Below the pieces are notes generated by a model that was not told the origin of the DNA, did not search any database, and was given only the letters and a program-made list of their open reading frames with translations. A DNA stretch of 62,186 bases, filler included, from Sluysia triapertura (Eukaryota): assembly GCA_046118255.1 (NCBI GenBank). It is 4 parts of 4 records of this genome, joined end to end, with 100 filler letters (N's around TTAATTAATTAA, not from the genome) between each part and the next. Parts side by side here need not be neighbours in the genome. Positions count along the whole stretch, not along the records: positions 14,741 to 37,285 come from JBJNIA010221798.1; 3 more parts are not named here. One strand, given 5' to 3'. Within the stretch, counting starts at the first letter, position 1, and every line of letters starts with the position of its first letter. The position numbers were made by a program, and so were the translations under genes. Positions 2,331 to 36,360 of the stretch are shown piece after piece.

Positions 2331-3058
2331 TAAAAAAAAGAAAGAAAGATTGATAATAAAATGAACGAAAGAAATAGTAGGAATAGGAAATAATAATAAT
2401 AATGATAACAATTATGTGGTTATTATGTTTATTAATACAGAATTGTTGAAATTTATTATGAAATTTTATCATGAAAATTATTATAAAAGTTATTATTTGG
2501 TATTTATATTATATAACAATAATGACTATAATTATTACACATATTTTAATATGATCTGAATCGTAATAATAATAGCGATAGTTCAGGATAATTAGATGTG
2601 ATGGTCATGTTTGTTTTTGAATAAGTTTAGTAGTTTATTTAATAATCTGTGTATATGTGAAGTGTTTTGTGTGATGTAGTGTGATGGAATTAGTGTGAAG
2701 AATTCCCTACATGAAATGATAAAGAAAATATAAAGATTAGTTTATTAAAATTATCGTTAGTTTAGTATATATTTATTTGATTTATTATTATTTATTACTT
2801 ATATATTTTAGGAAAAATAAGTTAAAAAATGAAAATTGAATTAATTATGTTTTTCTTTAAAAATGAATTTACTACAGTGTTCTTTCTATATAAACCCGCC
2901 TTTTTATATAGACGTCATATTTGTCTGCGACATCGATTATGATTCTGGAATTTTGATAACCCAAGAGGATAATCAAGAGGTGGTATATTAATTGAATGTT
3001 TATTATTTCGTTGTTTAATATACTCTGGCTGGGTTATTACTACTTCCTGAATTTCAAT

Positions 3059-3301
3059 TCATTGATTAATAAGATCTAATGGGATTTTCTCCAAGATATA
3101 ATAATGCCTAAATTTACCCTTACAAAAAACGTGAATTTCCTCTATGGCCGTTCGACATAATGGACAACTCATGTATTCCGTGAATGAAAAATGGAAAAGA
3201 TTAATAATACATTTAAAGTGAAATTTATGTAAACATGGATGTGTCTTTGTATAATGCTTATGTATGGAGCATTGACAAATTGAACACCGAATAAAATACA
3301 T
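3059..3301 (-). CDS. Small intronless RING-H2 finger protein (possibly truncated by a premature TGA)
   Basis: CSIC...PCLHKFHFKC...CPLCR fits C3H2C3 spacing; the frame stays coding-like after the TGA at 3059-3061. Confidence 0.7.
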   Translation of the reverse strand: MYFIRCSICQCSIHKHYTKTHPCLHKFHFKCIINLFHFSFTEYMSCPLCRTAIEEIHVFCKGKFRHYYILEKIPLDLINQ

Positions 3302-3994
3302 TACTGAAATTTAGGAAGAAAAAATAAAAATATAAGAAGATAATAATATTTTTAAATTAATTAAATGGTTAATTAAAATACTGTAGTTATAGTTCTAATT
3401 ATGTACATTACGAAAAATATTTGAACAATAATTTTTTAAAGTTAGGTGACCAGCCGGACAGTACACAACCGTCAACGTCGGTCACTCGGTTAACTCTATA
3501 CTTTAATTATGGGTGTCATTCTACGAAATGATCCTAAATACATTTTTATGGCTTCAGTCGTAAGACTGACTGCAAGCAAAGCATAAATGATGCACAAATG
3601 AATGTTGATTTAAAATTCTTTAATGTCATTATTGTGTTTGTAGATTTTAAGGTTAATTAAGCTGATTTTAGTAGATTTATTTGGTATTTTAATTGTTTTT
3701 TCAGTTATCGCTTATTTAATTACAGTATTCTTATTTAATTTATTACTTATAGTTTACTTAATGATGGATATAACTAGATTATATGGTCGTGTGATTGATC
3801 AGTCATTCGCTTTTAGTGATTCATTAGCATTAAGTATCCACGCGTATATAATTGAAAAGGTTGACACAGGATAATAATTTAACAGGGTAGTATGTTTCGG
3901 TGGAATTAATTCTGAAATAGTTTCTTTATCAGTTGCATATCTTATTATAATCGAATTATTTACTAGGGGATTAGTTACCTTAATTAAATCGATT

Positions 3995-5830
3995 TCAGTG
4001 ATTAACGCCGTTCAACCATTGTTTACTGAATTTATCGTAGAATACACAAGGCATTGTTTTAATCCAGTAATATTGTGTATGTATTACTCGATTTGTTAAT
4101 TCCATCGTTATTTTTACTTGATATAATTGAGATTCAAATAAATCTTCACAAGTTACTACCCAATATATTGAAGCTTTAATTAGTGTTGAAGAAGTAGTAC
4201 AGAATTGATTGAAGCAACAATTGATAGATAAACGAACTAACTTCTCGTCCATTTGCTTAGCTACAACTACTATTACGTCGGTCTTGGCTTGAATAGTTAT
4301 TTGTATATTATTGTAGAACAATTTCTTACTTAACTTATTTATGGTTATATCAAATGAATCAATAGTTGTTATTAAACAAATACAGAGTAATACCGATGAT
4401 ATTTGAAATCCATTATAATATGTAGGTAGTCTTAAGTCTGTATTGTATTCATATATTGGTGACGGCATTATTGGTGGTGGTCCTGGAGGAGGGACAAAAT
4501 TTATTATATCTTGGGATTGAATAGAGGTTATCACCGTCATTATCAGGATTAGTGTATTTACATTTATTCATAATGAACATCATTAACAAGGTTATTATCA
4601 ATGCAATAAGAAATAATGTAGCTGCTATTGCTAAAATAACTATTGCCGGATCTTTTTTTAATGTATCTATAATTGTAGTTGGTTCTCTGATTCCTTACAT
4701 AGCAAAATGAAGTTGTTTAACAATTTTTGCTTGATGTTGGATAAATATTACTATGTCTGTCTTCCGATAGTAAATAATCTTTACAGATTGTTACTGGATA
4801 CTCTGCGTTGGGTAGAACATGTATGTGTAGTTCCCATATACTGAAATTAAGTCTTGCTGGATTGATACATATGTAATTTGTTTTAATATTTCTAGTTACC
4901 TTAATTTGCACTTCTGTATCAAAGTTATAAAAATCCAAATATTTTGATTTGTAAATTCTCTATGACGCGTCCGTAATTGATAATAAGGTTAGTAAGGTAA
5001 GTAACATCATGCTTGGTTTTCTATTATTTACTCTTATAATTCTATTACAAGTGATTAATTAGTAAATAGTAAACAGCATATAAATCAGGGTAAAGATTAA
5101 GAGTGCAACTTTAAAAATATTTTGTATTTCAAACTTATTTTTCTTAATTATATTCTTACTTATTTCCGTGGTAATATTCATAAACCTATTCGTTGTAGTT
5201 GCTAATAGTGTACTTACTGTTTTATCTATAACTTTCTTCTTAAAAATGTCCATGAAGTCTATTGTTACTGACTTATTATAAAGTGTAAACGCCATTATTG
5301 TGGTATATTGAATTGAGTGCTCGTATTTGAAGATATCATCTATCATAGAGGGTTTCTTTATTATTATTGGCTCAAAATATATGCATTATATATCGAAGCT
5401 ATAATCAGGAATTTCGTTTCTGTTATCAATTTCAGCAGTCCAAAATCTATTGAAAGTATCTGATAGAAAGACGTTCTGTTTAGTATTGGTATAACTTGTT
5501 AAATTTGCTGGATAATTCGTCATCATAGTTGTTAATTGAAATAAAATAGCATAAAAGTTATTATATAAAAATATCTATTATTTGGAATTGCTCTTATAAA
5601 CATTATACTGCTATCACTGTTGCTAATACTAGTATTATCAGTAGTATTATTATCATTATTATTATCTGATCCGATACCTGAGGTTGAAGAAACTGTGGTA
5701 TCCCACCAATCGAGATTTTCCAAATTTGGAGTTGGTGATGGTGGTAATATTGGATTTAATGGAGCAATTGTACTGGCGGAACTGCTCTTGGCATTGGTTA
5801 TACTACTAATTGTGGTTATACTACATGTGT
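3995..5830 (-). pseudogene. Tandem decayed ORFs for signal-peptide/TM membrane proteins of unknown family
   Basis: S/T/P-rich stretch 5830-5600; TM-like VALLIFTLIYMLFTIY; signal-like MMLLTLLTLLSITDA at ~5010; TM AIVILAIAATLFLIALIITLLMMFIM at ~4650-4570; scattered stops and frameshifts. Confidence 0.45.
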
Positions 5831-5899
5831 ACCTAGAGGTATTTTAAGAAATCCTAGTCTTCCGTGTATTACTATATTTTCTAATTTGCTTAATACATC

Positions 5900-7997
5900 C
5901 ATTTCACATCTAAGACTGTCAACTGACATCTTCTCGTTGATGTTTTATTATTTCTTTTGGATCTTCTAGCTTTCCCGAGATTGACATTATTTGTATAAAA
6001 TTTACATTTCCTTGCTCATCGATATTTGTTAATCTGGACATACAATCGGCACCGTTCTTCATTGACCCTGTTTGTATATTATTTGTAGATCAAATTCTGC
6101 AGTTTTGTAAACCATCTATTTAATCTACTTACTTCATCTCTGTGATTTATAGGTATGTTAATGGTTTATGATCCGTATACAGTAATATTTTCTGTCCTAG
6201 TAAATAGTGTCTGAATAGTTTACACGCATATACAATTGCTAAACATTCCTTTTCTATTGTAGAATAATTTAATTCAGCTTTATTTAATCTTCTACTTGCA
6301 TAAGCTATAACACCTTCTAGGTTTTCTTTATTTCTCTGTCCCAGAATTGCTCCTATTGCAAAGTTGCTAGCATCTGTTGTTAGTATAAATGGTTTGCTCA
6401 TATCTGGGAACATTAGTATTGGGACATTTGTTAATCATTTCTTTAATTCAATAAACGCTTTTGTTTGTTCTTTCGTCCACTTGAATATTGTGTTCTTTTA
6501 TATGAGCATTCTTAATGGTCTAGCTATTTTCGCAAAATCTTTTACGAATCTTTCTTTACATTATCTGGTGGTGGAAATTTCACAACTTTTTCTATATTTT
6601 TTGGATTTGGTTTTATACCTTTATGTGAAACTATGTGTCTCAAAAATTCAACTTGTTCTTCTGACCATACACATTTAGTCGGTTTAATTTTTAATCTTGA
6701 GTGTGTTATCTATATCTACACCACATGAGTATCAAAATCTTTTGAAAATACCATAAATGTAAACCATAACATTCTTACAACCGGGAAACACGAAATTCAT
6801 ACATTTTTGGAATGTCATCCGAATGGCATCTTTTCACATTCATATAGTTCGTCTCCACATGAGAATACTGTTTTATGTTTATCTTTTTCAGCTATTTCTA
6901 CTTGCCAATAACCACTTTACAAATCTAATGTAGTAAAGTATTTAGCGTTGCCTAATTTATCTAACATTTCATCAATTCTTGGTAGTGGGAATACATCCTT
7001 TCTCGTTATTTTATTTAATTCTCTAAAGTCAATACAAAATCTCATAGTTCCATCTTTTTTCTTGGTCTGATAACTCCAGCCTTTTTCATAATATCTATTT
7101 GGTCTTTCATTTCTTGTTGCTTACATAATGGAATTCTGTATGGTTTCTTTCTAATTACTTTATCTTCTATTAACGGAATTTCATGTTTTATTATAACGGA
7201 ATCTCCGATATCATATTTATTTCTTGCAATTGCCCATGGATATCTATGGATAACTTTATATAATGTTTCTTTTTGTTGTTTAGTTAAATTCTTATTCTTT
7301 ATTTGTATTTCTTCGTAATCTTCTTCATCTTCAATATTTTTTGGTAGTTTTATGTTCTTATTTCTTGGTTTATCATCTGATACCATTTTTATTTGTGTTT
7401 TTAATTTATAATTAACTATTTCTCCTAGTTTTGTACCTGTGTATAACCATTTATTTTCATCAGTATAATTTATTATTCTTATTGGTATATTCCCGTCGTT
7501 AATTCTACATATTGAATCAGCAATACCTATGTTTAATTTCTCTTGATTATTTTTTGAAGCTATAAACATTATTGGACCATTTCTTAAACTATTTGTTCTT
7601 CTTAAACTATACATTCTGTCATTTCTAATATAACATCATCGTCATCCATTGGTCTTTCCGTATACGTATCCATTAATCTTGCTTTACTGAAGTCTGATGA
7701 AACTCCTTTTAATTGTGATAGTACATTCATTACTCTACGTTTTATTTCCATTTTGTTCTGGCCAATTTCGCATAATATCTTTAGCACTCCTAAAATTTCA
7801 ATTTCATCTCCAGTTACTCCTGTTAAATATGAATGTTGTTTAGCTAAATTGTTTAATTTTTTAGTAGTTAATAATGATTCGCTTATTAATGAGGCAACTG
7901 CTCCTGTATCAACTAATGCAGATAACATTCTATAATTAACTCTCATATCTATCATGGGTCTTCTTGCACTGTTATAGTTATTATTAGCGCATATCAT
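5900..7997 (-). pseudogene. pol: Gypsy pol (aspartic protease, RT, RNase H), frameshifted and partly deleted
   Basis: ALVDTGA; KPYRIP; [47 protein letters not shown] (7060-6815); FILTTDAS, YASRRL, NYSTIEKECLAIV, TDHKPL, ADCMSR. The YxDD region is degraded. Confidence 0.95.
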
Positions 7998-8109
7998 GTA
8001 AACTAGATTTCTTGGAGGTGGTTGATATAAACTTTGTTTTTCTTCGTTGACTGGTTCGATATCTATTGTCTGTAATGCGATTTCCTCAGTTTTTTTTCTC
8101 TTTCTTTAA

Positions 8110-9889
8110 AGCGTTTAATTGAGCATGAGCGTGATGATGTAACATAAACTTAGCAACCGATTATTAACTTCCATGTAAAACCTGATATTCTGTATATACC
8201 TACAACTAAAATATTTCAGAGATTATAAAAGCAATAACTTTAATTATTACATATATACCTATTAAAACAGAAAAAGCTCGACATATAACTAAGAAGTTTG
8301 CCCAAATTTGTTTTAAAGTGTTTTGTGCTGCTTTCCTAATAGTAATTCAAAGTTTATTTTACCATCTTTTTCAACTCTTGATTTATCAACTATATCAGTA
8401 AGTACTTTAGATCTTTTAATAGGAAATAGTATCTCATGCCAAGCCTCTTGATTATCTTCATTTGAATAGATTCCAGATCTTGGAATGTTCTTTGTAGCTG
8501 AGAATTTTAATTTTGTTTTTAATTCTGTTAAACCTATAATTTCCAAAGATTGTCATCAATTTTATATTCTGGAGCCATTACATTAGAGCAGTGTAGAGTT
8601 TTTGGTTTAAGTTTATTAGTTGGCATAATAATTCTAGTGACTGGTTCTAAATAAGTATTTTGATTTTTGTAGATTACTAGTAATTCATTAGTACATTCGC
8701 TCTCTTGTCTTATTTGTACTTCTACCTTTCAACATTTATATGTATATGAAACTTCACCCATTAGCCTACCAAATACTCCTTCTTCTAATGGAAGTAATGG
8801 TGCTACTAAGTCTGGGTTGGTTATTGCTACTGCTAGTTTAGTACTTAATATTTCCTTGTTTAATTGGAAATCTCTAGCTATCATAGCTTGATAAACTTTT
8901 TCTAGTGACATAAGTCCTAAATGATAATAAAAATCGATTTTATTATTAAAATATATTTAATTGTAAATTATTTGTATCTATTCCTTTTTTGGCTTGTAGT
9001 ATTGTCTTTTCTGATAAATATATTCCTTGATAGTTTGTTTCTGTGATTTCTTGTCCGCATCTAATTACTAGTTTCTTTGATACAAATATTAATTCATCTT
9101 CTTTATTCACCATTAAAATTGTTGGAGTTTCGATTTCATGAAGTCTTCCTTTCACTTATATCTAAATTATCCTTATAAATTTGTTTTTTATTTATTTCTT
9201 CTGCAGCTAATTCACCCTCATTTTGATACATAAATCCTGAGATTAGATTAAACTTAATTTATTTTAGGAATATTAGTGGACATTGGAAATTTTCCAATTC
9301 ATATATAGTATAGATTCTCCAGTATCACAACTTGTTTGATCACTTCTACAAAATGGTCTAGACATCATAGTACCTTTTTCTAAATTAAAACTTTCGTTAA
9401 AAGATTTTAGACTTACTACATACGTTTCTTGAGCTAATACATTGTGATAAATCTTCCTTTCGTATTTTATTGATCATCTTTCACAAGTACCATCAATTAA
9501 TACATTACCAGTTATCTAATATTGTAAATTATTTTTTCATTATTTTTAATTCTTAATTTACCTCCTTTATTTAAACTCCTCCTTTATTTATATATCAAGT
9601 TTCAAATGCATCTCGACAATTGTTTGGTGATATTTTAAAAGGTTTTAATATATTCGACATATCAATAATTGACAAGTGACTGTGGTGTTGTAACCAAATT
9701 TCCTACTTGGTAAACATTTAATACTTTCATATCTTTTATTTTGACTCTATTTGGTCTTGATTGAGGACAATCTTCAGTGTCCAATAAAGAAAACTTTCTT
9801 CCGATTTGAGGTTGGTTACAATCAAAAGCTTTTATAGCATTTGTTTTAAGAATTCCAAATAATGCCAATAAAACAATTATAAATAACAT
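8110..9889 (-). pseudogene. Env-like glycoprotein resembling chuvirus (Jingchuvirales) G
   Basis: Signal peptide MLFIIVLLALFGILKTNA then IKAFDC...FSLLDTEDC; LAVAITNPDL...GEVSYTYKC..VEVQIRQESECTNEL...YLEPVTRII...CSNVMAPEY; C-terminal TM SVLIGIYVIIKVIAFII...GIYRISGFTWKL. These match the recalled chuvirus-G motif pattern; many frameshifts. Confidence 0.75.
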
Positions 9890-9999
9890 ATTATTTATTG
9901 AAGTTCCAAATTGCGGGAATGATCCATTCGTATTAATTAGTCTGGATATCATGTTAAGTGGTTTGCTTAAAGTATTATAATCTTCCTTTTCTTTATCTT

Positions 10000-10350
10000 T
10001 GACTTTTACAATATTTTTTCATCCTCCTAATTGTTCAATTAGAGTACCTAGTTTCTTATCGGTAAAATTTATAACCTTATCTATTTTTTCTTGAGTTAAG
10101 AGCGCAGCTTTATTGCATTGAAATATTATGTAAGCCATTATTATTTTAAGTCCATCTCTATTAATTCCAGCGTTAATTTGTTTATTGATTATGTTTTTAT
10201 ATTGACCATTGTTTATGAAGTCACTTATGTCTGTATTCTTATATCTTTCCTCCATAACTTTAATTATCTTAGATAATGCAATTCTTTTAATTCAGGTAAA
10301 AGTTAGAGAATTTACTATATAATAGTGCGCAAATTATAGTTTTAGTACTT
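10000..10350 (-). pseudogene. Bcl-2-like domain inside the retroelement polyprotein
   Basis: BH4-like STKTIICALLYSKF, BH3-like IALSKIIKVMEERY, BH1-like YKNIINKQINAGINRDGLKIIMAY, BH2-like KLGTLIEQLGG*KNIV (TGA where TGG Trp is expected); in frame with the glycoprotein signal peptide. Confidence 0.55.
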
Positions 10351-11899
10351 AAAGTTTCTTCTATATTCTTATAAGTAATTTTTGTTAAATCAAAAGGTTT
10401 TCTATGTATTGGTGTTGGTATTATTGTTTCGTCATCATTATCTTTAATTTTTTTGGTCTACCTGGTTTTCTTTTAAAAGTATTTGTTTCTTTATCTTCAG
10501 TTTCAATATGTGGATTTTAATTTAAATCTATTATGTAATCGGGTTTATCTTCTGTGTAATCATCATTGTCATTGGTAATATCTATAATTTTACTTTCATT
10601 ATGGTTATCTTTATTATTACTATTATTATTTTCCTTATAACTGTCTTCCATTAATTCTCTTAGTGTTGAACATGGGGTTCTATATAAATCAACATCATTG
10701 TCATCATTGATTAGTTCCTTTAATTTTCTTAAATCATCGGAAGGCTTAGTATATGCCGTTATAACTGCGGAAGTCATTGATGCTTCCTCATGGTTTCCAT
10801 TCATTGATGATAACCCTAATCATTTATATAACAATTTTCTATCATAAAAATATAAATCAACATCAGTAATATTAGAGTCATTTGACTTGAGTAATTCTAT
10901 AATATCTTTAGCAATTGAAGTAGGAGAAGTTCCATAGTAATATTCAAAATAATAATTATACTTATTTTCATTAATTACTTCTTTCTTTTTGTCCTATTTT
11001 CCTTAATAATTTTCTTGCATTAGTCTTATATAAACTATCTTCTTTACTTTAAATAGCTAATACTAATTTAATATCGTGTCATTCTGTAAACTTAATTCTG
11101 AATTCAACAAATCATTTAAATTTTCATTTAAGTCTTTGCTATACGTCATATTAGATAAAAATTCTTCAACTTTTCGATCAATTTCCTTGATTTTAGTTTC
11201 TGGGGTATTTATCTTCTCATTAGCTGCTATTATTATTGATTCCGTCTCTTCTGTTTCCATCTCTTCTGTGGCACTGTAATAGGCATCTTCTTCATCTATT
11301 TCCATTTCTTCTGCTTGTATTTCTTCATCATCTGTTTCTTTATTGTTAATGATGTATCTGTTTCTACTTCTTGATCATCACTTAGTTCTGCATTATTTTG
11401 TTGATTTTCTTCTTGCTTAATTTCTTTATCTGTTGGAATTGATTCTGTATTTGATTCTTCTTCTATTTCATCATTACTTTCTTTTGATTCAGTATCTATT
11501 TCTTTATCAATTATCTTATTTGATTCCGGTTTCCTCGTTTTTCCTTCCCATTTGTCAATTAATTCTTGAATTATTTTTCTTTTATCTTCATTTGAAATAA
11601 CTATTTTATCTCTTTTATTTGTTCAATACTTTCTTCTAAAGGTTGATTTAATAATTCACGAATTCTAACCTAAATTGGTTGAATTATTAATCGATTTTCT
11701 TCTTTTTCTCGTTGTTCCCTTCTTTGTTTATCCTTTTGAAATTCCAGGTATCTATCATGCATGTAACTCATAAAGATTTATTCTTCTTGTTTTTTCTTAA
11801 ATCTATTCTTAATCCACTAATATAGAATTCCCGCAGCATTGCATTCTTTTCTTCATCTGATATTAACTTAAGATATTTATCATCTTCTTCATCACTTCT

Positions 11900-13041
11900 C
11901 ATTTCTCTTCTTCTTGGTTGCCTTCTGCTTCTATTTCTTGCTTCTTTATACTGATGTTCTTCGTCTTCATATTCATTTCTATAATCTTTTTGACTTTTAT
12001 GCTTACAATTTACCTGTCCCTTATTATTCTTATTGTTACTATTATCATTAAACCTTACCTTCCTATTCGGGCTTTGGTATCGTCCCCTAACCTTATTAAA
12101 ATCCTGAGTAAATACATTTTGTCTTAACTTCCTACAATCTCTTGCATAATTCCCCTTTTTATTACATTTGTCACAGATTAATTCTCCATCTATATTAGTT
12201 TGAGTCTTATTATTATTTTCATATCTTATTGGACTCTTACTTCTATTCCTATTAAAATTAGAGCTTGGTGTCCATCTCGGTGCTGGTCTTTGTTCATAAT
12301 TAAAAGTACCATAATTACTTGTTCTTTTATTCTGTAATTATTATCTCTAAAATTATTTCTGAAATTATTCGAGTTATCACTGCCTCTACTTTGGCTACTA
12401 CATCGTTCATAATTGTAATTACTGTCATTATATTCTTCATAATTCTGGGAATTACATTTATTATTATCATAATTTCTTGTTAATTTTGGGCTTTCATCTC
12501 CTTTTTCTTCATTATCGCTTATATAATCAACATCATTATTATTCTTTTTATACTTAATTGAGCGTTCTATACTTCTTAGTTCCTTATTTACTTCTTTAAA
12601 GGGTTTTCCTTCTATTAAGATAACATTTGTTATTAATTCAGGTCGTAATCCAGTTTTTAATTTGCCTATTAATGTTATTTCTTTTTTATCTTCAGGGATT
12701 TTGGCTCTAGCAACAAGTCTTTTAAGAGCACAAGCATATTCATATACAGATTCATTTGGTTTTTGTATACTGGTATTTAGCATTTTAGCATAATATTTAC
12801 CCATGTAATCAAGAGCTATTTCTTCTATAAATGCATGAACAAATTCATTCCATGTTTGTTTATTATTATTGCTTATTTCTTTATAAGTCTGGATAGCCAC
12901 TCCAGTTAGATAATTTTGGATCCGTTTTATTTTTTCGGCTTCATTCCAGCCGTTTGTTTCTGCTATGCTTTCATATTCAAATAAGAAATCGCAGAGATAT
13001 TCCTCTGCTCCGTCAAATTTGTTCATTTCAGGTAAAGACAT
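11900..13041 (-). pseudogene. gag: Gypsy gag with degenerate zinc knuckle
   Basis: FDG..FLFEYESIAETNGW..YLTGVAIQ..QKPNESVYEY..GLRPEL; CDKCNKKGNYARDC at 12175-12134 (CX2CX4[H>N]X4C); R/S-rich tail. Confidence 0.9.
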
Positions 13042-13371
13042 TATTGGAATGAAAAAATATTCTCTGGCATTTCTCTGGCTAAATGTACCATATATTCCTT
13101 AAATTCATTAGGTAAAACCCTATAATTCCTTAATTTTGATCTGTAATCTTCAAAAAGTACAATTTTCTTATCTATTACTTACTTAATCTATTAATAATCT
13201 TATTCTTAACGAAATCTTGATACGATTATTCTAAAAATTCTTAAATCTTAATATTAATTCTCAAATTCTTCTTTAATTAATCTTTAAATTCTTCTTAAAT
13301 ACTTAATTCTTATGTCAATACTCCTCCAAAATCTTCTTAATTACTTAATCTTTATATTTATTTCAATACTG

Positions 13372-13390
13372 CTCCTCATTCTGGGCACCA
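13372..13390 (-). promoter_or_regulatory. Primer-binding site, elongator tRNA-Met-like
   Basis: TGGTGCCCAGAATGAGGAG resembles the reverse complement of the animal tRNA-Met(e) 3' end (TGGTGCCCCGTGTGAGG); ~350 nt upstream of gag and 10 nt after a candidate LTR end ...TTCCACA (13401). Confidence 0.6.
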
Positions 13391-14486
13391 GATTATTCTA
13401 TGTGGAAAATTTACTTAGAATAAAAGGAAGTACTTATTGTGAATTCACCAAGGTACTAGACCAGCAGTTGGATTTTGGTAAATTAAAAGAAAGTCTCAAA
13501 AACCTTTAGCTATCTGTAGACAAATGAAATTTATTTACAAGAATTAATACTAATAATCGAATTTATAAAAAGATTTTTCGTTGATTCCTCTGTATGGAAT
13601 TTTTAAAAGTTATTTTGCGTACCTAGAGGTAAATTCTAGCAGTTGAAGCATAAAGGACGACGGATTTTATGGTTGAAGCTATAATATAATTTATTCTTGA
13701 AAATTTTGTATAGCAATACAATAATAATATAAATGTCTAATTTATGTAAATTAACTGTATAAGTTAATTTCCCATTAAGAAATTTTAAAAATAATATTTT
13801 GCGTATAGATCTTTGAAAATATCCAACAGTTAAATAAAAGAATTTAAGTAAGATTTTTCGTATGATACTATATTTACCTTAAAAATAATTAAACTAACGT
13901 GGTTTAGAATAAGTTTTTAATCGTCTAATAATCTTCAAGTCGTATCGATCTGCCAAAATCTACTAAATTCGAGATTGCGTCTCTGAAAGAGTTGTAATTG
14001 AAAAATTATATTTTTAAAAAGTGTGACCGAATTGAAACAAAATTTTATAAACAACGTTAATTAGCTATAAAGTGTGGAGGGCGACACCAATCTGTACTTT
14101 TTAATTTTACGTGGCTTTACTTTAGTTGAACGAAACTTAATTAAAACCAAATTTTTTTTATCTATTTTGTTAATATTTACGAAAATGAGCTTAAGGCTCA
14201 GATTTATTAGAAATAAACAAATAATTAGAGTATATAACAACATAACAAGATCAAACAACTTGATGTTATTTACAAAAAAATATATTAAAAATAATTCATT
14301 TAAATATAAAATAAACAATGAACGAATAGAATTATCAACATTTAACATATCATGTATACCTTGGATAACATAGTCTATGAGTTCTTCTTTTTCTCCTTTA
14401 TCTCCATCGTTCAGACTTCCATCGAAAGAATCATCAGCCATGGTTAAAACGACGTCGTAAAATACCCATTTTAAAATTCTCATAAA

Positions 14487-14640
14487 ATAAAATGTTAAAT
14501 AGACGAGGAAAACACCAAATGTAATTGATAATTGATGATGTGCTGTAATTGTACAACCAATTGACGTTGGAGAAATTTCTGCCAAAAATACTGGTGCTAT
14601 AATAATCATCATCGCAGTATTTAAACATAATATAGAACGA
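14487..14640 (-). pseudogene. MFS sugar-transporter (GLUT-like) fragment
   Basis: APVFLAEISPTSIGCTITAHHQLSITFGVFL resembles the sugar-porter motif PxYxxEIsP..RG....QL.I..G; cut by the contig end. Confidence 0.6.
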
Positions 14641-14767: not shown

Positions 14768-15083
14768 ACAACCCTTTTATTAAGGTGTTGTTTCAAAAAA
14801 TGAATTTAATATTTTATCTAATTGTGACAAAAATCCTTTTATTTACTTAAAATCTATTAAAAACAAATTAAATCTTCTGGAAGTTTTATTATTAAAAAAC
14901 GTTTCACCAATAATTACAAAAAAGTAAAATTATAATAATAATAAAAATTTTAAGCTAGATTCAACCTTGTGTTGATCGCTATTTTATTTTAAAATTAAAT
15001 TACGCGACCCTATAATTAAGGTGTCGCAAAAATTATTATCAGATTTTAGGTTAGATTTTAAATATCCCACTTAGGGTGATATT
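14768..15083. repeat. Array of bulged stem-loops (stem-C-CC-loop-GG-T-G-stem)
   Basis: Copies at 14768-14791, 14961-14975 (short), 15004-15027, 15061-15083; more at 50330-50351, 50473-50496 and 62127-62150. Confidence 0.75.
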
Positions 15084-16271
15084 ATGAAACTTATAGTATA
15101 AAAAATTACTTGTTTGACATGGAATGCATTTAAGAATAATTCGTCTTCTTTTAATATAAATTTCTTCTGAGACTTAAATTTTCTTCTTGAACTAAATCTT
15201 TACACAATTCTAAAATATTGTTTCGCTAAATCTTCACAAAATTCTATCTATTCTTCTTGAATAATTTTCTTCACAAAAATCTATCTAAAAATTTGTTGTT
15301 ATAAATCAAAAATTCCTACCTATTTATAATGAATTATGTTCAAAATGGATTCCAATGATTTAAACAAATAAAATGAATATTGATGGATTTAAACAAATTT
15401 TATATTAAATAAAATTAATTAAATTTTATAAATTGATAAAATTATTTCAATTATTTATTAAAAATAAATATTTATTTAATTATTATTATTTATTAAAGAT
15501 TATTTTACAAGATTTAAATTATTTAAATATTTACAAAATTAGTTAATTTTAAAATTATTTAAATATTTACAAAATTAGTTATTTAATTAATTTTAACTTA
15601 TTTTAACTTTATAATAATTATATTGATTTTAAAGATAACACAAAAAACATAAATAAACACAAAAACATAAATATTTTTTACATAACAATAAAAATTTATA
15701 ATAATAAAAAATTATTATATAATTGGATAATCATAAATTAAGCCATTGAGGATGTTCAAATAATTAAAATAATTTGGTTTCAAAGCCATTTTTGTGCACA
15801 ACGTTTTCAGCTACGCTGATGTGCATGCAATTAGTTAAAACTGAATCAAGTAAACACTACAACCGAGCCAATAAATATAGAAGCCCATAAAAACTGTCAA
15901 AATAAGAAAAGGGATAATAAAAAAAACTCGATTAGAATTTATAGAAATTTAATTGTTGTATTATATTGTTATATATATTTAATTTTAAGTTTTACAGATT
16001 TAGTGCTGAACTGTTTAGATATTTAAATGATTGTGTATTTATTTAATGTCTTGTGTTGTACATGTGGCATTTTGTTTATTGATTACAATTTGAAATAATG
16101 TCAAAATTATTTTAAAAATAGGAATCAATATATAACTATAATTTAGATTGTTTTACTTAATCATTTATTAAATTTTTTATCATACTATTAAACACATAAT
16201 TTAAGTTTTTACGATATTTTAGAATTTAATTCATATTAAAATAATTTGATTTCGTATTTTTTCGGTAACCA

Positions 16272-19200
16272 ATGCATTTTTTTAAAACTTCAAAGCCAAA
16301 ACATGAAGAAGTGTTTAAAAATGTAACAGAACGTCTCAACAGTTTGTATAATAATAAATTACTATCTCTGGAAAAGCAGTATAAATTTCACGAATTTCAT
16401 TCATCATCATTAGAAAGTGGTGATTTTGAATGTAAACCAATGGTTCTATTATTGGGTCAATATTCAACTGGAAAAACTACATTTATTCGTTACCTTCTGG
16501 AACAAGACTTTCCAGGTATTCGTATTGGGCCAGAGCCAACTACAGATAAATTTATAGCAATTATGTATGACGAAAAAAGTGGAGTAGTACCTGGAAATGC
16601 TTTAGTAGTAGATCCCAAAAAACCATTTAGACCATTATCAAAATTTGGAAATAATTTTCTTAATAGGTTTATTTTGGAAATTTATAAATATTTTCTTTTA
16701 GATTTCAGTGTTCGTTATTAAATAATCCAGTACTTAAATCTGTAACAATTATAGACACTCCAGGTATTTTAAGTGGTGAAAAACAACGATTAGACCGTGG
16801 TTATAATTTTCCGGAAGTTGTTGAATGGTTTGCCGAACGTGTTGATAGAATTATTTTATTATTCGATGCGCATAAATTGGATATATCAGATGAATTTAGA
16901 CGTGTTATTGAAATGCTAAAGGTAATTTAATTCGTCATTTGTTTTTTTATTAAATAATCATTAAATTAATGAAATAATTCCTATATTGATGTGTTTTTGG
17001 ATACAAAGTACATTCTTCGACAAAATTTGAAACACAATTATGTGTGTTGCGAAAAATGTTTGTAGGATATTTGAAATTTTATAAAAAAGTAAATTTATGT
17101 AAATTAATTGCGTAAGTCAAGTTTTTTTCATTTTGTGCATTAAAATGATTTGTTTTTAATATTAATATTTTATTTAAATGAGTGATTGTAAGAGAATTCG
17201 ATAACATTCATTATAAAAGGCGCTAAATTTGATTTATATATATAAAGTACATTTATACTAAGTAAATATATTAAGTATATTTAAACATTAATCCATTTAG
17301 TTAAGTGTTTTATAAATAAAAACTAATGTTAAATTATTTTTTAATCGTTCATAATCTTAAATAAGAAGAATTACGTTTAATATCAGGGTTGGCCAAGCTC
17401 CTCGATAGTCCGAGCCATTTTTCAAATTTTGAAATTTTTCGCAATTAAATACGCATTAAAAAGGTACGCAAAAAGGTATTAAAACATTTTTTCCGACAGA
17501 AATGAAATTTGTTACAACGTCTTTCAGATTTGTCAGAATTTAAAGGACATTTTGAAACACATAGTAACACAAAAATGAAAAGAAAAGTCGGGTAAATTTA
17601 TCGAGAGAGCCACAAATAATCTTTCAAAGAGCCGCAGTTTGTCAACCCTGTCTTAGGATTTATCGATCAATTAAATAAATTATGAAAAAAACAATTTAAA
17701 TTAAATAAAATAACCTCAAAATAAAAATACCGTTTAAAAAATTGGAAAATTTAGAAATGTAAACTCCGAAAACACAAACAACGATCAAACTACTATCCAT
17801 AAGGCATCCATTATTATTACACCGAGCACAAGAAAAGTTAATGTCTCAGTTGATGACATAGGGAAAGAATAATCCAAAAAACACTTGAAGAATATTCTAC
17901 TAAGTCAATCAGTGTAATGTGTGGTAGACCATGCAAAACAGTTAATGCAATAGTACAAAGATATTTAAACCGGGAAAACGTGGAGGTGATAGAAGATCTA
18001 AACTTACGCTCGAAGTGAAAGAGCAAATATTAACAAAAGTGGATCAAGAGTGTACATTGACACTAAAAAATCTAGAACTATATGTGTCTGAAACGTTTGG
18101 TATCAATGTATCTTTGAATACTCAAGAGTAGTTCCAGAAACAATCGAATAGAGGATGTTATATTCGATTTAGTAGGAATAAATCGAAAAATTTAGTTTCA
18201 TATTTTAAGTTGATTGTAATTGATTGCAAAGTTTATTTAATTGATCGATTGCATTTAAATATTACGTAATATAAATGATAGAGGAGTAACGAATTTTGTT
18301 TTCAAAATGTGACAAAATATCTCAGTAATTTCTGAAAAAATGTCACTATTTTCTTGCCGTAGTTTTCAAATTATCAATATCTATGTTGTTCATGTTTTTT
18401 CTTTTTTCTGGTGGATTGGAACCATAAAGCTCAGAAATGACTTATTATTATTTTCTATTATATTATTATTTAATATTATTTTCTATCGGACATGACTTTC
18501 GTTCCAAACATATAGTATAAAACGATGTAATAATAGACTGTACAAGGGTCCATTGTAATTTTAAAGAAATGGTAGGCTCCTAATGATTTTGTTTTAAATT
18601 TTGTATTATTACTTTATGTGAAAAATATTTAAAATAATCAATTCTTATTCATCTTAGATTTATTTGTAAACTTTTAGAAAACCTTCATGATATCAAATAC
18701 CATTAGTAAAGTGTTGTAGTCCATGAAATGAGGAAATTTATCTCGTTTCTATTATTAAAGAGGTTGTTTAACGTCTCATTCTACTATACGAAAACACATT
18801 TGTTTAAGGTCTATGAAAAACTTAATAACTGTGTTACAAGGTCATGTTTGATTGGTTAACAAAGAAAATTTTATTTTAAGTAATTAATATTTAAGTTTCG
18901 AATGTTACCGAAAATATCTTCGGTAAAAACAATTTCAAATATTAAAAGATATGGTGGCATTAGTTCTGAACTCGTCTTTGTTGGTAGAAATTGAAATTGA
19001 AATTGAAATTTTAACAGTTAGAATAAGTCAGTCTCAAATCTATATACTCAGAAATAAATTAAACATTTGACAGACAGAATATAAACAAATAAATCAAATC
19101 GAATAAATACTACATTTATACCTTATTTCGCAAGTTTTTTCTGATTATTTTAGGTTGTAATTTAGTTATTGTACTTTATATTAAAGTTATTTTGAGATGT

Positions 19201-22200
19201 CAGCATAATTCCAATTTATTTTTCACAGACATACTATGACCAATACATTTTTCGATTTCATTCTATATATGGTAACTGTTCTATAGTTAAAATCATACAA
19301 TATGATAATATAGCCAATTTCTTCTATTTGTTAATTTTTGTTTATTCTTCATATACATTCAATTTGTAATTATGTTTTGGTTTGTATTCGTTTTATCGTT
19401 CTCAAAATGCATCTTTTTATGACAAGCTTTTCGAACTTTAGATTTCTTCATTTCAAAAAATTTATAATCAGAAATTATGTAATAGTGTCACATAATTTCG
19501 TTGTTTATATATATTATTCTTCCTTGTTCACAACTACTCAATTTCCACGACATAATATCTTCTCTACAATAATGAAAATAATAATGATCTCTGTAATGGA
19601 AAATTGTCTTTGAATAAAATATGCACACGACAAATACCCACAGACAATTGCTCACATGGAAAAGTTGTATTTCAAACAAAATGCATCGATTATTCGACAA
19701 AAAATTATAAAAGTTTCAAAAATAATCTATTGTAGTATGAAGACGAATTAAATTGAAATATTTTTACTGAATATAATATGTAATTCTTCATAATAATTTG
19801 CTCTTAATTAATCGATGTGGTACAAGATACGTACAGGATTCGTACTTGTAATAAATTATTTTAAAAGTAAATATAAATTAAAAACAAAATATATATGTTA
19901 TATATCTAAACAAAATAAAAAATAATTGTAAGTTATTATTATTATTGTAAATTAGTCATTTTTCGCAAATATCGCATTTTATTTTCTATATTATCATAAT
20001 TTTCGACGTGAGGGGTCACAACCGAATGCGAACATTCGCAAATGTTAGGGTATGGCAAGCCAAATATTTTTTAATTCGTCAAGAGGACGACTACCATGAA
20101 ATAATGAATTTAAAACATTGTACATCTCTCACTGCCACTTGTTGTTTGGGATGGCTTTGATTCCAAATTTGATTAGGAATAGAAGACTTCTTCATGTTAG
20201 TACTTCATTGAAACTTTTTTCATCGGGAAATGCAGTTGATGGTTGATCAAAAACTCGAAGTACACTAACTGGTGGAACAAAAGGCAATGCTGCAAGAAAT
20301 TTTAATTTTAATTGCGTATCAATGCTACTTTCGAATTGTATTTTTTAAACAAACGCTAGGCAATACAATCCTAGTCAGTGTTTTGAGGTGATAGATTAAG
20401 AATTAAAAGCTTTAAGATGTAAAAACATTCGTGAATATGTTTATCTTTCGTGATAAAAATTACGTACATGATGGATAAACATTGCCGAATGATCATCTAT
20501 TTAAAATTGATTATAATTGATTATAATTTGATTATAAACAAATCTGTATCAAAATAAAAATCAGATAAAAAGGAATAATAATAAAAGTTAGTATACCTTT
20601 ATATTTGCTGGATAAGAGAATAACTTACGAAATGTAATTGTATCGATCAGTGCATTGAATTGAATTCGAAATTCGTAATTTATGTTTGAAGACATTATTG
20701 AATGAGCATCATGACCTCTAAATTACTCACAAACCAATGACAAGATTATATACTCATCATTTTGTCCAACAATGAAGAATTTATCACTAAGATTGATAAT
20801 GTATTATCAGATTGGCCTTTAGTTATATGATTAAACATATAACGGCGATTATACTTATAACTAATAATAAAATGAATTTTCAGGTACGCTTTTAAATCGT
20901 GTACTTCATCATCATTATGATCAACATTCATGGAATCAGCAATTGAAACGCTGTTATAGTGGAGTATTTATTATTTCTATTATCGGTAAGACCTACTGTG
21001 GGGATTGAATCGTATATTGATAATCGATTGTGACGGTGCGTAACGCACTTGGAGAAATAAGAGCTCTTGGTAGCAGTAGTTAAATCATGATCGGTATCTG
21101 AATTATTAACGAGATTACCGTGCGTGTTTGACATCTTTTCCACCGAATGTTGTGATTATAAGGTAAGAAGCGTGATCTTGTAAGTGCTTGAACAATTCAA
21201 ATCATAATATCTAATTAATGTTGTAGTATTACTTGGAACTTCTGTCTCTAATCTTCAACAGATTTTGTATCTAATGATTGACAGAAACGGGAACTTTTAT
21301 TATCACTTAGTTCAGAAATAAACATTGCATCTTTAACTTAATTAGTTTGGTAAAAATGATTTTTATTGATAATAGAATATTATAACTAAAATTGCGGTCA
21401 AATATCGCGATTAAATTTATGTAAAAATTGAAACTGCATGTTGTGATTAAAAATGTTGTGGTTAAGAATATTGTGCCAATTAATTTTGCTAACTTTATGT
21501 AACCAACTGTTTTGTTGCTAGCACCAATCAATATAAAATTTTTATGAATGAAAAGTGGTCAAGTAATGACAGGAATTAAATTAAATAGATAATAAAAACT
21601 GTGAAAATTGACAGTGCAATAATTAAATGATAAAAATAATAATTAAAATAGTGATAATCATAATAATGATAATAATAAAAATGTAATAATAATCATAATG
21701 AAAATGTNNNNNNNNNNNNNNNNNNNNNNNNNNNNNNNNNNNNNNNNNNNNNNNNNNNNNNNNNNNNNNNNNNNNNNNNNNNNNNNNNNNNNNNNNNNNN
21801 NNNNNNNNNNNNNNNNNNNNNNNNNNNNNNNNNNNNNNNNNNNNNNNNNNNNGCTAATAATAAAATAAATATTAAAATAAAAATAAAAGTACGCATACAT
21901 ATTTGTCTTGTAACATATCAATTTCTTAAAAGAAAGCTTGTTGTGGTTGTTTTCTCCAACAACTTCATCTATAACAAGTAAATGACATCCTTCATCTGAT
22001 GTGCGATATGTGCTTCTCTTTAACTTCTTCATTTTGCATTCTTTTCTGATGCATGTCTCAGATGCATGTGGAAAACTTCCTTTTAGATCTCTAATGACAT
22101 TTTCTTGAAACAGATTTAAGTGAATTGGAAACAGTGATAATCGATGTGGTGGACTAAGTGTGATTCTGGAAGACGATGTATTATTCTTTGGCAAAAGCCA

Positions 22201-25200
22201 ACCATCCGAATTAGTATGTTGGCATGAGTTTTTATCGAGAGGTTCGTTTTGAATGACAAATATTACATAATGATAGAAGAAAGAAAGATAAAAATAAAAA
22301 AGTTATGAAAGAGAGTTGGGAGATAATTAATGAAATTAAAGGTGTTAAGAGAAATTCCCTTTCGTATATTGTTATTTTGAAATTAAAATTACAAATTTGA
22401 TGATTTTTGATGTAATGAATGCTTTAGATGTTGTAAAAGTATGATTTTTAGTGTAGTGTGGTGTATTAAAATTTTGTGTGAAGAAGATGGCCACCACAGA
22501 GGACGCTTTTTCTAAGATTGATTCTTCAGCTCTCAATTTCACATTGTCATGCAACCTCTCCACAACCTGCAGTAATCCCCAGCTCGGGTTCCGCTTGAAT
22601 TCATTTATATCTTGTTTAAAATCTGATATTTCGATCAAATAATCGATTTGTTTGCTTGCATATTACGAACTGTAACTTCATGCAAATCTTCGTTACCAAC
22701 TATCATTGTTTTGAATACATTATTGTCAGCATTTTTTGCTGTTCTAACAAGTTTTTAAAATTATTTAATATTTTTTGTTTTAAAAAAAGTGAAAATCAAA
22801 ATAAAATTAAAAAAAATAATACTTATAATAATAACAAAAACATGTAATATAATATAATATAATTAGTATTAAGATTACTGCTAAGGTTAGTTGTAGTAGT
22901 GGTAGTATTACATGCATGAGACAATTGAAACACTTTGTACTAAAGTACAATAATAGTGAGATGATGGAAATGACATTGTCTTTTAGTGATAATGATGATG
23001 AAAACTGGGATTGTGGTAAAATAAAACTTATTTAATTTATTTTGATGTAATAAAATGATAATGCGTATGGATGGATGAAAACAAAATTACCAGAGATACT
23101 GGGACACATCAATCCCTCTGTGAGAAGCGGAGCTGGTCTAATGTTGTGACCCAGTATTAGGAATAAGAGTTCCATTTTTGCGTGATACAGGAGGTTGATT
23201 TATTTGGTTCTTTTTGATGATTTCAGTTTTGATACACCAGTTGATATCAACGATGGCTGTATTGTTTACGGGGTTGAATTTTTTTAACTCGATATGATCC
23301 GGTATTCCTTGGCTGTAAATGAAGTTCGCTTTTCAATGGATGCCCAAACGAATGGGCTCTCATGAATAAGAAAGTAATTTTCCCTCTGAGCTTTAATTAA
23401 CTACTTTTGAATCAAAAAATAAATCTTACAACCTGTTCTAAGCTAAAATTTGAATTTATTTATTTTCAAAATTCAAAGAGCAACTTGTTGGAGTTGTCTG
23501 AAATCAGATCGTCATTTACACAATGTGTTTTCGGTTCTTTTATGTTCAAAATCGACCTAGTTCACTTTCTATCATAATTAACCGATTATCATGTATAATT
23601 TTTAAAACAATATTATATTACTTATTGTTGTCATATCTAGAGATTTGAAACTAATGTATGACTTATCTTCAAATATAAAGCTAATTTTAAAAATGAAACA
23701 GTATTTTTACACCTTAAATATTCAAAATTTTAATAAATATTGAAGAATGTGTAATATATATATCAAAAATATTATTGTTATTTATTTCAACGGTACAATC
23801 CATTATATTATATAAGTTAATTTTAATTTTTTTATTTATTGATTTCTTGTTTATTATGTTTCTAATAGAGGACTTTATTATTATTGTATGTTATTATTAA
23901 TGTTATCATCATTAATCATATGTTATAACACGATCGCAATTTTCTTGGTTTTTAAACAAATTTTACATGATTATGACGACTGTCCAATCACAGTGTGTTT
24001 TTTTAAACTTCACTAAAAATATAATTTTTATACAAAGTGCCAAATATTTAAACAAAAATAGTAAAAAGATAAAAATTACAAAAATCATATTAATTCGTTC
24101 TGAAACTCCAATTTAATATAATGATAAAAAGATATAATGCGAAGAGTTTAAAGGTGCTTCTCGGAATGGTGTTGATGAGAATGAGGGAGACAATTGCTAA
24201 TGATTTTATTGTAAGTTTTAAGATGAGATGATGAAGTGTAGAATGAATTTTATGTAAATTTATGAGTTTGGGTGATAGGAAAAGTACCAAAACTAAATAC
24301 TATTATTACAATTCAGGGTTACGAAGAGAAAATTCGTATTGTTCTTAACAAATCTGATATGGTTGATAGTCAGCAATTGATGCGTGTCTACGGAGCACTG
24401 ATGTGGAGTCTGGGAAGAGTACTTTATACACCAGAAGTTGCTCGTGTTTTTATTGGCTCATTCTGGGACCAAACGTTACATTACGATACAAATCGAAAAT
24501 TGTTTGAATTGGAAGAAAAAGATTTATTTGATGATTTACAAGAATTACCGCGCAATTCTGCTCTAAGGAAATTGAATGATTTAATACGTCGAGCTCGTCT
24601 GGCAAAGGTAAATTAGATATAATTTCAAAATTTTCAATTTATTGATTTTCTGTAAGATCAGTTTATCGATTACACTTAGGGGCAGTTTTGAAAAGTATTA
24701 TGGAAAATAAACATTTACGAATAAACATTTTATCCGAATTCCTTATTCGGATCTTTTCCATTGTAGTTTTTCAATGATAAATACATTTTAAAAATAGACA
24801 ACTGGCTTCATATCCTTCATATCATTTAATCACGAGTTTGAGTGATAGGAATGGAATGTTATTAACCCGAGTCTTATTTTGATAGGATATTAATATGATT
24901 GTGACTTGTGCAATAATTGATAATGCATTTCATTCTTGTTATATATTTATAGAAACATTATTGATGCAAATTAAAATCGCTTTCCATAATTTCCTGAATA
25001 TTCGAATATATTAGACAAAAATCTTTATAAATTTTATAACTTTTACAAATCTTGAGAGTAATTCATTATCGATCTTTCTCGAATATGATTATGATTCGAA
25101 TTTTATTTTATTTTATTTTATTTCCATTGAATCATCCTCTACAGGTCCTATTTAATTTCAGCGAAAACACAAAATTTTCACAAAATTAAACGCCTGACTC

Positions 25201-28200
25201 AAAATACATACTTCAAATCGAATTTAAATTATTTTATTTATTTATGTACCTTTATGTTATATTTATGTAATATTTATATAATATAAAAATAATAATAACA
25301 TAATATATTTCATTAATTTATATTGCCTGTTTATTATTTTTTGTAATCCTTTAAGACATTTTTTAAAACATTCCCCAAGATGAAATACTCCGATAAAACT
25401 AATCTGCATTCTTCGCATGTAGTACAGTGGTCGTATAGTGGTCCGAACTTGACCAAAATGACGGGTCGGTGCAAATGAAAATACGAAATGCAAACAGTTT
25501 CTTATCGGACCATAAACGTTTCAATGTGTATGATAAATTAGTGTCGGGGCTGCCTTGACAGAGGACCGCAAAGGTTTAATTTAAAGTCTGGATTGAGATT
25601 TATTTCAATGTTAACGATCTACCATAACAAAATAATAAACGACTTTGCCAATTGCAGAACAATAAAAACTAAAAATAAAATAAAACCTAAAATTCATTCA
25701 ACACACTCATAGCATTAGTGTTTTTAAACAACATTTAATTCTCGAGCTTTTGATTTGGATTCAACTTAGCACTTAAACGTAAATAATTTTTTCTGTTTGA
25801 TTTTGAAGCATATCTGATTGAGGTATTGTTTATGAATTAACTTCAAATGAATCTGAAACTGATGTGCTTTATTTGAATTGTATTATCGATTGATATTGGA
25901 GCACTTTGCGATTCGTCTATGGAATCTGTGAATGGAGGTTGTGAATATGGATGATGACGATTGCGACTACGTGACACACGTGTCCATATAGAACATTTTC
26001 ATTATCAATATTGTGTTGGTGAAGACAACATTTATATAATCGTGTTATGCCGCAACTACTGCTGCCACCAACGGTAGGAGTGGCACATTGACTGCGTCCA
26101 AGATTACGAACACTAGTCTTATTTCATCAAACTCGATTTCTGAATGAGTCACTGTTGCCAGACACACAATTATTTTCAGTCATTAAACCAAGGTAACAAA
26201 CTTCATAACTCAACACCATTGAAAAGTAACTTCCTATTTTAAAATATCTACAATTTAATTCGTTTCTCAAATTTTGTGTATATCTTACTTAATGTATGAC
26301 AATTTAATCTATGCTGTCTCTATGTTTTCTTTTTAGATCTGTTTTGTGAATTTGTTTTCATTAATTTGTTTGAAATTTCAAACCGTAGAAAAAATATCCT
26401 CTGGAGTGATGAAACTGTATTTCATATAGAAGGGTTTGTGAACCATCACTACTGCACTGCTGGGCAGGAGAAGATCCTCTTGAAACGGTATGATGTGGAA
26501 TTGTGGGTCCCTTTATCCTTCGTGATACTATGAATGCCGGAAGGTACCTCACTATGTTGAGAGATGAAGTTTGGTCAATTGAAGATTTGATTTTCATGCA
26601 AGATAGAGCTCTTCCACACTGAATGATAAATTTCCTGGAAGATGGATGGGACATCATGGTTCGCACGAATGGCCAGCCAGAAGTCCTAGCTTAACACCAA
26701 ACCAACAAATTTGGAAGAACTTGAAGTTATGGCTTTCATGCCATAACTTGTGAAATCAATTGATTCGATTCCTGGTCGACTCGAGAAACTGGTGGCGAAT
26801 GATGGTGTCTTTTTATAATATACTTTTATATATTAATTAAACGTATAAATTATATTTAAATTATAAACTACAGTTATTTTAAAATAGAGAGTTACTTTTC
26901 AATCACTCCATATATTGAATGTCAAAACTTGAACTCATACTGTGAACTAGATCTTCTGCATCGCCTTGTTTATGATCGTCTTCATTGACACAGGGATGAA
27001 TTAGTTAATTTATCGACTGAATTCAGAATCAGAAAGGAACACCTTGATACCACTTATTACCAATTCTTAACATCTTTAAGTGGAACTCCTTTATCTTCTA
27101 AAGATTTCTAGATATTGTAATAGAGTTATGTTATCAGATAAAGAATGAAGATTTAAATGAATGTGTTAATATAAAATATGAAATATTTTATTTATTAGCT
27201 TATAAGTAGTATAAATTACAAAATAATGGAAGTACTATATAGATAAAACACAATAATAATGTATTAAACCAAAGGTGCGCAAACTAAATGGCGAGTCTCT
27301 GGATGGTGGCTCTAAAAATTTTAAAAATGTAGATTTTACAATCAAAGTTTTGTTTTTTCTTTGAATATTTTTTTTTGTTTTTTTACCAATTCAAGTAATT
27401 CCATCATCTAATTCCATAATTTACGATATTGATGTAAGAACAATCATCAAGAATAAAATTTCAAAGCAAATATACTTACAAATTCATAAGCAATTATACA
27501 TGCGTACTAGAGATGTTATGCTATTTGGTTTTCTGCTATTTTTTAGCTGTTAATTGCAGCTATTATTAAATAACAGCGACGTGTTGAAAATATATTAATA
27601 TTTCACTTATGTGAAATATTGCATTTTTGATATAAAGAATTAAAATTTATTTTTGTTAATTTTCTTTATTTTTGCTAAAGAATTAGAACTATTTTCATAA
27701 TATTTAATTAATTTAATTTATAAGAAACAGAAAAATACATTTTGTTATTAAAAAGGTTTTTGTTTTATTTATGAAGTTTTTTTTATTAAGTTGGGGCGCC
27801 AAAAATAAATAAGTTGTAATGGGGGCGCAACTTGATTAGAGTAGTTGCTTCGTTTCACTTGTTCAGTCGATTTCATAAATTTGTGCCCCACCTTGGTCTA
27901 TGTTGTACTATTTCGTTGATATTTAAAATGAATGATATTGTTATTTGATTTGATTTATTTATTTGTTTTGATTTCTATTTCTGTCAATTAGGTGCACGCT
28001 TATATCATTAGTTCACTACAATCTCAAATGCCGGCATTGTTAGGTAAAGATACGAAGAAAAAGGAACTAATTCAGAATTTACAGAAGACGTACGATCAAA
28101 TATCGAGGCAGTACGGGATTTCCATGGGTGATTTTCCGAAGTTAGAACGAATGCAAACTATTTTACAGGTTATTATCTTAACTTTCTGTTTTTTTCGAGT

Positions 28201-36220: not shown

Positions 36221-36360
36221 TGTTGGGGTAAAAGGCCTATAAAGTGCCAAGTAGTATAATTGAATATATTGAAAATGAAAAACTTAGACGGGGCTGATAG
36301 CTCAGTGGTAGAGCATTCCCGGGTTCGATCCCCGGTCAGTCCATTTTATGAAGTCTAACA
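36221..36360 (+). mobile_element. Same element, copy 2 (anticodon arm deleted)
   Basis: Same termini; TSD ATAT; D arm joined directly to T arm. Confidence 0.8.

Follow-up and report, generated by a model that had tools for sequence, protein, structure and literature searches.

The bulged-A hairpins found at contig ends in a 62,186-nt stretch of Sluysia triapertura DNA (filler included; hereafter the window) are conserved in shape and are under structural selection. They form one module of a repeat of ~1.2 kb, of which two diverged versions are present in the window; the length was obtained by adding head A to tail A, as each copy in the window is incomplete. The carrier is a highly multicopy non-coding element and is larger than an earlier sequence-only reading had taken it to be. 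The window has a G+C content of ~26% and consists of four contigs between N-linker gaps (1–14640, 14741–37285, 37386–50370 and 50471–62186). The hairpin groups lie at contig ends, where they would be expected had the assembly been interrupted by a high-copy repeat. The genes in the window, which include an intron-rich EHD gene, a CCDC81 exon, a copper-transporter piece and a broken Gypsy element, indicate that the host is an animal; in ordinary full-length matches of the EHD exon a trematode protein came first (71%), with insects about equal.

On the minus strand the motif reads stem-C-A-CC-N-UAA...GG-G-stem, with a loop of 6–9 nt. A scan of both strands of the window for the core CCC-N3..14-GGTG gave eight matches, six of which, all on one strand, carry an outer stem of at least 4 bp (4–5 bp); the other two carry none. 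Block-wise dinucleotide shuffling (200 rounds) gave 4.7 cores on average, but only 0.025 (maximum 1) with such an outer stem, which bears out the six copies reported by the sequence-only reading, at the same positions and with the same differing yet pairing stems. The scan and alignment place them, all on the minus strand, at 14768–14791 (array type H1), 15004–15027 (where one U.G pair is added to the helix), 15061–15083 (the first past the donor-like site), 50330–50351 (version B, the last before the spacer, also placed by comparison of the tails), 50473–50496 (second head, again the first past the donor-like site) and 62127–62150 (H1, identical to 14768–14791 and the last before the spacer). 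Arrays had been claimed on three contigs; within the window a row of three exists only at 14768–15083, and tandem rows are seen via contig joints.

The six hairpins represent five distinct sequences, and the arms pair fully in only one of their 120 permutations. When the copies are aligned, 45 of 48 cells pair, compared with 28–48% in slid registers, and both sides have changed in five of the eight pairs; by our own count from the arms, at least seven double changes are needed. The covariation score was not reached in any of 500 shuffles, a control that ignores the relatedness of the copies. These results agree with the earlier proposal of selection on structure. The single bulge, described as invariant, is kept in all six copies. 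The form given for the motif was correct in its bulge and stem, but the loop is not free: it starts with N-UAA in 6/6 hairpins, a feature that had been overlooked. The suggested covariance-model search was run on the window, where a model built from the six copies recovered these and no further copy, the best match after the training copies scoring 13.9 bits.

A truncated copy had also been suspected at 62173. The copy is present, but it starts at 62170 (62170–62186, minus strand) and is a variant hairpin, H2, that runs off the end of the window. A contig loose end before 14747, seen in four contigs, opens with the last eight letters of the window and supplies the remainder of H2. Read from this loose end, the pairs above the bulge are U-A, C-G, U.G and C-G; the first is U-A instead of C-G, so that even the CC/GG core can covary. 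A possible decayed or shortened copy at 14960–14978 (minus strand), seen in the sequence and missed by the covariance model, is of low confidence. The candidate CACCTTAA at 51975 was rejected as it is without a 3' arm and lies inside a CCAAT-type palindrome. Single hairpins at 50060 and 3567 (minus strand) have the same bulged-A geometry, with another upper stem and a 3-nt loop, and are probably due to chance.

The abundance of the motif was assessed from the summed contigs of one public run, possibly the source of the window itself; this depth refers to contigs and not RNA, and is no copy number. The bin holding the hairpin at 14768 has a depth of 453,765, compared with 19–27 on the EHD exon. 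Over 61890–62186 the depth is 19.8 in the flank, 760–917 thousand in the tail, 12–37 thousand in the spacer and ~700 thousand (~700,000) on H1. Hairpin and tail are thus more than 10,000-fold covered, the spacer 20–70-fold less, and the sequence just past the tail is at the single-copy level, which confirms that the hairpins belong to a repeated element, as had been claimed. Depth divided by the largest overlap factor is still greater than 1,100, a rough estimate by which the motif is probably present in more than a thousand copies. Extrapolation of the depth ramp puts the end of the family at ~61904–61906. Tandem joints lead back to the hairpin with periods of 44–57 nt (13 joints used, 10 of 11 from 61890–62186 and 3 of 12 of those listed from the 14768 region), and their low depth indicates that direct tandems are specific to particular copies. 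None of the 12 substitutions listed at ≥1% in 61890–62186 falls in the H1 stem, which is weak evidence as only changes away from contig ends were listed; a 1-nt loop deletion occurs at ~5%. Across the family, hairpin and tail are much more conserved than the spacer between them.

The order of the element on the minus strand is an AT-rich head, a TATA box, a leader, a donor-like block, the hairpin row, a variable spacer and then the tail, which itself consists of a second covarying stem, an acceptor-like site and a terminal hairpin. In the first head the AT-rich part spans 15330–15690, with a probable element start, TGTTA, at 15687, where the contig depth falls tenfold, from 3,825 (bin 15637–15692) to 362 (15693–15748). 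A TATA-like box at 15320–15328 is followed by a purine-rich, C-poor leader (15115–15300), a putative first exon, which is AAGA-rich with 43% A and 8% C and matches the composition of the sense leader of the Gypsy element in the window. The second head comprises a TATA-like box (50617) and an AT-rich part within 50612–50930, its start being undefined, and its shorter leader is a poorer match to that composition. The TATA-like boxes, found in both heads with a chance probability of ~0.5, are candidate Pol II promoters. The TATA at 15328, previously given as ~15325, and the GTAA at 15109 and 50522 are present as reported; taken by themselves they are weak, with a chance P of about 0.49 and 0.21.

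Stronger support for the position of the hairpins downstream of a donor-like block comes from the homology of the two blocks, 15084–15145 (CCATG, then GTAA at 15109–15106) and 50497–50560 (CCATG, with GTAAG from 50522), both on the minus strand, which align with a score of 35 reached by 0/3000 controls. The phase from ATG to donor is not the same in the two heads. Alignment of the whole of head A with the whole of head B was discarded as evidence of homology, since the AT-richness of both makes it uninformative.

Self-comparison of the window revealed a second shared block, at 50121–50219 and 61905–62002, 110–130 nt from the last hairpin. The two tails are identical in 58 of 70 columns over stem and acceptor and in 67 of 127 over the spacer, and the homologous tails together with the homologous donor blocks define one minus-strand layout common to two diverged versions. 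In each tail a bulged A interrupts a 13-bp stem (50171–50215 in version B, where the bulge lies on the 3' arm, and 61954–61998 in version A; minus strand), two compensatory pairs distinguishing the versions. Within version A the variants 61955 T>C and 61958 G>A are linked (54 contigs each), and a loose end after 61993 gives their partner letters; the 61986/61967 pair, U.G on the minus strand, becomes U-A in an 11% variant. A candidate UUCG mini-hairpin in the tail was discarded, since support for its two variants is unequal (29 versus 54 contigs).

Branch-like and acceptor-like sites follow at 50155–50166 (version B) and 61938–61949 (version A), the acceptor-like sites ending at 50155 and 61938. 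The branch-like A is just 9 nt from the AG, a shorter distance than introns usually have. Donor-like and acceptor-like sites resemble those of the host EHD gene. The terminal hairpins, whose arms are 14–19 nt apart, lie at 50115–50155 in version B (10 Watson-Crick pairs and one G.U) and at 61905–61932 in version A (seven pairs, with TAACA at 61910–61906). In version B the pairing runs 7 nt past the CA, so this CA may not be the element end.

From the sequence, the fold appears rather more likely to act in minus-strand RNA than in the other strand. Wobble pairs on the minus strand include the U.G at 61986/61967, the U.G ending the hairpin at 15004 and the U.G in H2. The EHD-like donor and acceptor and the Gypsy-like composition of the leader also favour this strand. 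The folding energies of tails and hairpins lean slightly to the plus strand, which also carries a TATAAAA just past both rows (15097 and 50505). As RNA, the tails are predicted to be more stable on the plus strand (-29.6 versus -26.2 and -22.5 versus -19.5 kcal/mol), and the plus strand is also lower in energy in three of five hairpin regions.

The explanation that we prefer, and hold tentatively, is that the hairpins are a multivalent protein-binding tag within the intron of a retro-type element, possibly LTR-derived, and mark its unspliced RNA. Transcription would start from the TATA at 15328 and splicing would join the GTAA donor to the CAG in the tail, so that the hairpin row would lie inside the predicted first intron and fold in minus-strand RNA. 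A protein may bind C-A-CC-N-UAA and the bulged A, and the tag would single out the unspliced transcript, which a retroelement protein would export or package. An element copied from RNA loses its spliced-out parts; an intronic tag would therefore be retained only if the tagged unspliced RNA is copied, and such copying would explain both selection and amplification. The carrier would be of the retro type, probably LTR-type, the copies in the window being solo or terminal repeats, and spliced read-through from lone copies would account for the unrelated decayed frames behind the tails. A bolder form of this proposal, which is possible but on the doubtful side, is a natural device like an MS2 array: a row of variable length of bulged-A, UAA-loop hairpins in an intron within the terminal repeat of a retroelement, whose own protein would count the hairpins and so select unspliced RNA, while spliced read-through from thousands of lone copies would give neighbouring or captured sequences promoters and first exons.

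The assignment to LTR elements is suggested by the TGTTA at 15687 and the TAACA at 61910–61906, which are located at the two depth drops. An 8-nt inverted match from end to end was equalled in 42 of 200 shuffles, and the two ends come from copies that may be different insertions; version B has no terminal inverted match. A packaging signal in the unspliced leader of an element had been proposed for the hairpins. The repeated element and the donor-like position agree with this proposal, whereas neither tail is followed by a PBS or gag, which leaves a retroviral-type leader behind an LTR unsupported. The position relative to a PBS that had been envisaged was not found, as TGG follows 0/2 tails; the same would be seen behind solo or 3' LTRs. 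Ahead of head A there is no polypurine tract (the start of head B being undefined), no gag or pol is linked to the element and no autonomous partner was found, and searches with the frames next to the copies gave neither Pfam domains nor homologues. The Gypsy element of the window shares no DNA with the repeat in the self-comparison. Rfam 15 at the gathering score gave no family on the element and only two tRNA-like matches in the window, and ARAGORN found nothing on the element.

Beyond the window, the hairpin pattern occurs at no fewer than 120 metagenome loci (56 of 64 parts) and 10 viral loci. The stem is formed in 42 of these 130 loci, near the quarter expected from the pattern, and none of the 130 has two copies; no array was found beyond this genome. 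Three AT-rich stem-bearing matches proved to be one unrelated sequence. The tail pattern had no matches in the metagenome contigs.

In MLV and HIV psi lies behind the donor. To our knowledge, the RNA recognition signals of animal LTR-type elements are poorly defined. The hairpins described here resemble the packaging and export signals of retroviruses in being stem-loops behind a donor-like site that would be present solely in unspliced RNA. They differ in that a single small motif recurs many times, upstream of the presumed end of the repeat and not behind a PBS. The packaging signal of RSV is upstream of the donor, so that such signals need not be intronic (excerpts of PMC5035971). Ty3/Gypsy LTRs, including planarian Burro, share with the element a TATA-bearing repeat, presumed TG/CA ends, stem-loops downstream of the start and thousands of copies (excerpts of PMC6431247 and PMC3601003), and tandem repeats are marked in the legend of the Burro figure; unlike these LTRs, the element has no linked PBS, PPT or internal genes. 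LTR-mediated retrocopies are likewise intronless, decayed frames beside a promoter-bearing repeat, but differ in having two flanking LTR portions and junction microsimilarity (excerpts of PMC5131818). In excerpts of a study of Dugesia and Schmidtea, Gypsy accounts for >90% of LTR elements (bioRxiv 10.64898/2025.12.11.693146). Our literature search found no LTR with a whole predicted intron holding at least five covarying hairpins, and Repbase or other repeat libraries may hold the family.

The geometry of the MS2 operator and the loop of the Qbeta operator are familiar from phage. The hairpins share with these operators a short stem, a bulged A in the 5' arm, an A-rich loop and exchangeable stem letters (for the Qbeta bulged A, excerpts of PMC11724954). 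The phage operators are single, unlike the natural tandem rows with 6–9 nt loops of an animal genome reported here; the likeness is geometric only, and no homology is claimed. A short, covarying motif repeated in rows and probably present in >1,000 copies is directly testable. If the intron-borne tag is true, it shows how an element can keep an intron through reverse transcription, and its RNA and protein form a new compact pair to set beside the operator arrays of phage.

The same minus-strand fold could instead have a regulatory role, as a TAR-like array or one controlling splicing or polyadenylation through a host or element protein. We consider this unlikely, even though the structural and positional evidence is the same as for the tag. 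Four of the six copies have GUAA, a donor-like word, within 2 nt after the stem, and the H1 loop contains AAUAAA, but the latter is limited to the two identical H1 copies of the six. In excerpts of PMC3601003, stem-loops are linked to conservation in long LTR R regions. Regulation explains less well than a tag why an intron-borne row should be retained and amplified in a mobile element.

Comparable in its low likelihood is a reading of the plus strand as a non-autonomous, HINE/DINE-1-like Helentron, in which the hairpins would act in ssDNA, with a bulged T and 5' TTAC, as targets of an HUH protein. The terminal hairpin would then be the 5' subTIR plus inverted repeat, the tail the core, the row the central tandem repeats and the head a captured promoter, an assignment that we regard as equally improbable. 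The order of modules fits HINE as described in excerpts of PMC7492417 and PMC4067079, where a terminal hairpin, a conserved core, a variable segment and central tandem repeats are likewise found. Both tails have one sharp, highly conserved end with a hairpin (arms of 7 and 10 bp), the tandem units vary in number with their 44–57 nt periods, and the plus strand folds equally or more stably. The 11–15 bp subTIR is absent, however: over four head-tail pairings, whose copies may be different insertions, the best matches were 8 nt exact and 9 nt with one mismatch, which is the chance level. No four-base microsatellite follows the core, TRF giving just short AT runs at both tails, and the tenfold fall in depth is right at TGTTA and not 40–60 nt beyond. 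The only palindromes near 15700 that might serve as the Helentron 3' palindrome are AT-only. The wobbles lean to the minus strand, and the splice-like signals are on the strand opposite to that of HINE/DINE-1. Covarying hairpins such as those in the 44–57 nt units are not reported for the central repeats of HINE in the same excerpts (PMC7492417, PMC4067079), and a Helentron would therefore add structure-selected central repeats to what is described there.

It is quite improbable that the repeat belongs to some other, perhaps undescribed, carrier. Examples would be a Maverick-related or endogenous DNA-virus unit or a tyrosine-recombinase retroelement; the hairpins would serve it as origin or recognition signals, and the orphan frames would be its genes. 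Intronless orphan frames do adjoin tail and head, Mavericks have expanded in Dugesia (excerpts of bioRxiv 10.64898/2025.12.11.693146), and 49633–50112 is weakly like phage tail proteins (Atlas 0.92, with only 82–86 of 256 features). Against this, tail A is flanked by single-copy sequence, the frames next to the copies show no relation to one another and gave no homologues, and four viral matches span 31 aa only and are taken as chance. No hammerhead core is present in the element, the one core-like match in the window lying outside it.

Weakest, and very improbable, is the explanation that the covariation has no selected function and arose as a by-product when quasi-palindromes of a tandem repeat underwent template-switch repair. 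In palindrome repair one arm serves as the template for the other, and tandem arrays and foldback repeats are common in the window, but such repair should erase the bulge, which is kept in 6/6 hairpins together with the unpaired N-UAA, hairpin and tail are 20–70 times better covered than the spacer, and the tail stem, a second module, covaries too.

Several other features of the window were recorded. The host EHD gene (16272–31853, plus strand) has long introns, and the element head is located ~585 bp upstream of it, head to head. An orphan frame of ~243 codons with one in-frame stop (50967–51699, minus strand) ends just before the second head; a 214-aa part of it has no homologues and Atlas was blank. 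Directly behind tail B is a decayed frame in several pieces (48960–50112, minus strand) with weak Atlas phage-tail likeness only. PHROGs gave one weak match among five orphan frames. A sugar-transporter fragment (14061–14640, minus strand) runs from the gap after the hairpin row, and the two contigs are perhaps not adjacent in the genome.

The broken Ty3/Gypsy element (1000–13400, minus strand) includes gag, protease, RNase H, a RING-finger frame and further orphan frames, three pieces of a Monjiviricetes-type fusion protein and a PBS-like TGG near 13390. Decayed pieces like Gypsy gag and the Gypsy 3' region occur ~750 bp apart at 55118–55241 and 55991–56148. A foldback element of ~790 bp (47900–48691) has ~200-bp arms and a run of GAAnnTTC units, which we take to be like a heat-shock element; a related piece is at 42361–42466. 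AT-rich promoter-like cassettes headed by TGTAAAGG are found at 43000–43900, 45200–46500 and 47100–47500, two of them forming a 750-bp inverted pair (71%). Short tRNA-derived repeats are located at 34390–34567, 36214–36373 and 38801–38858.
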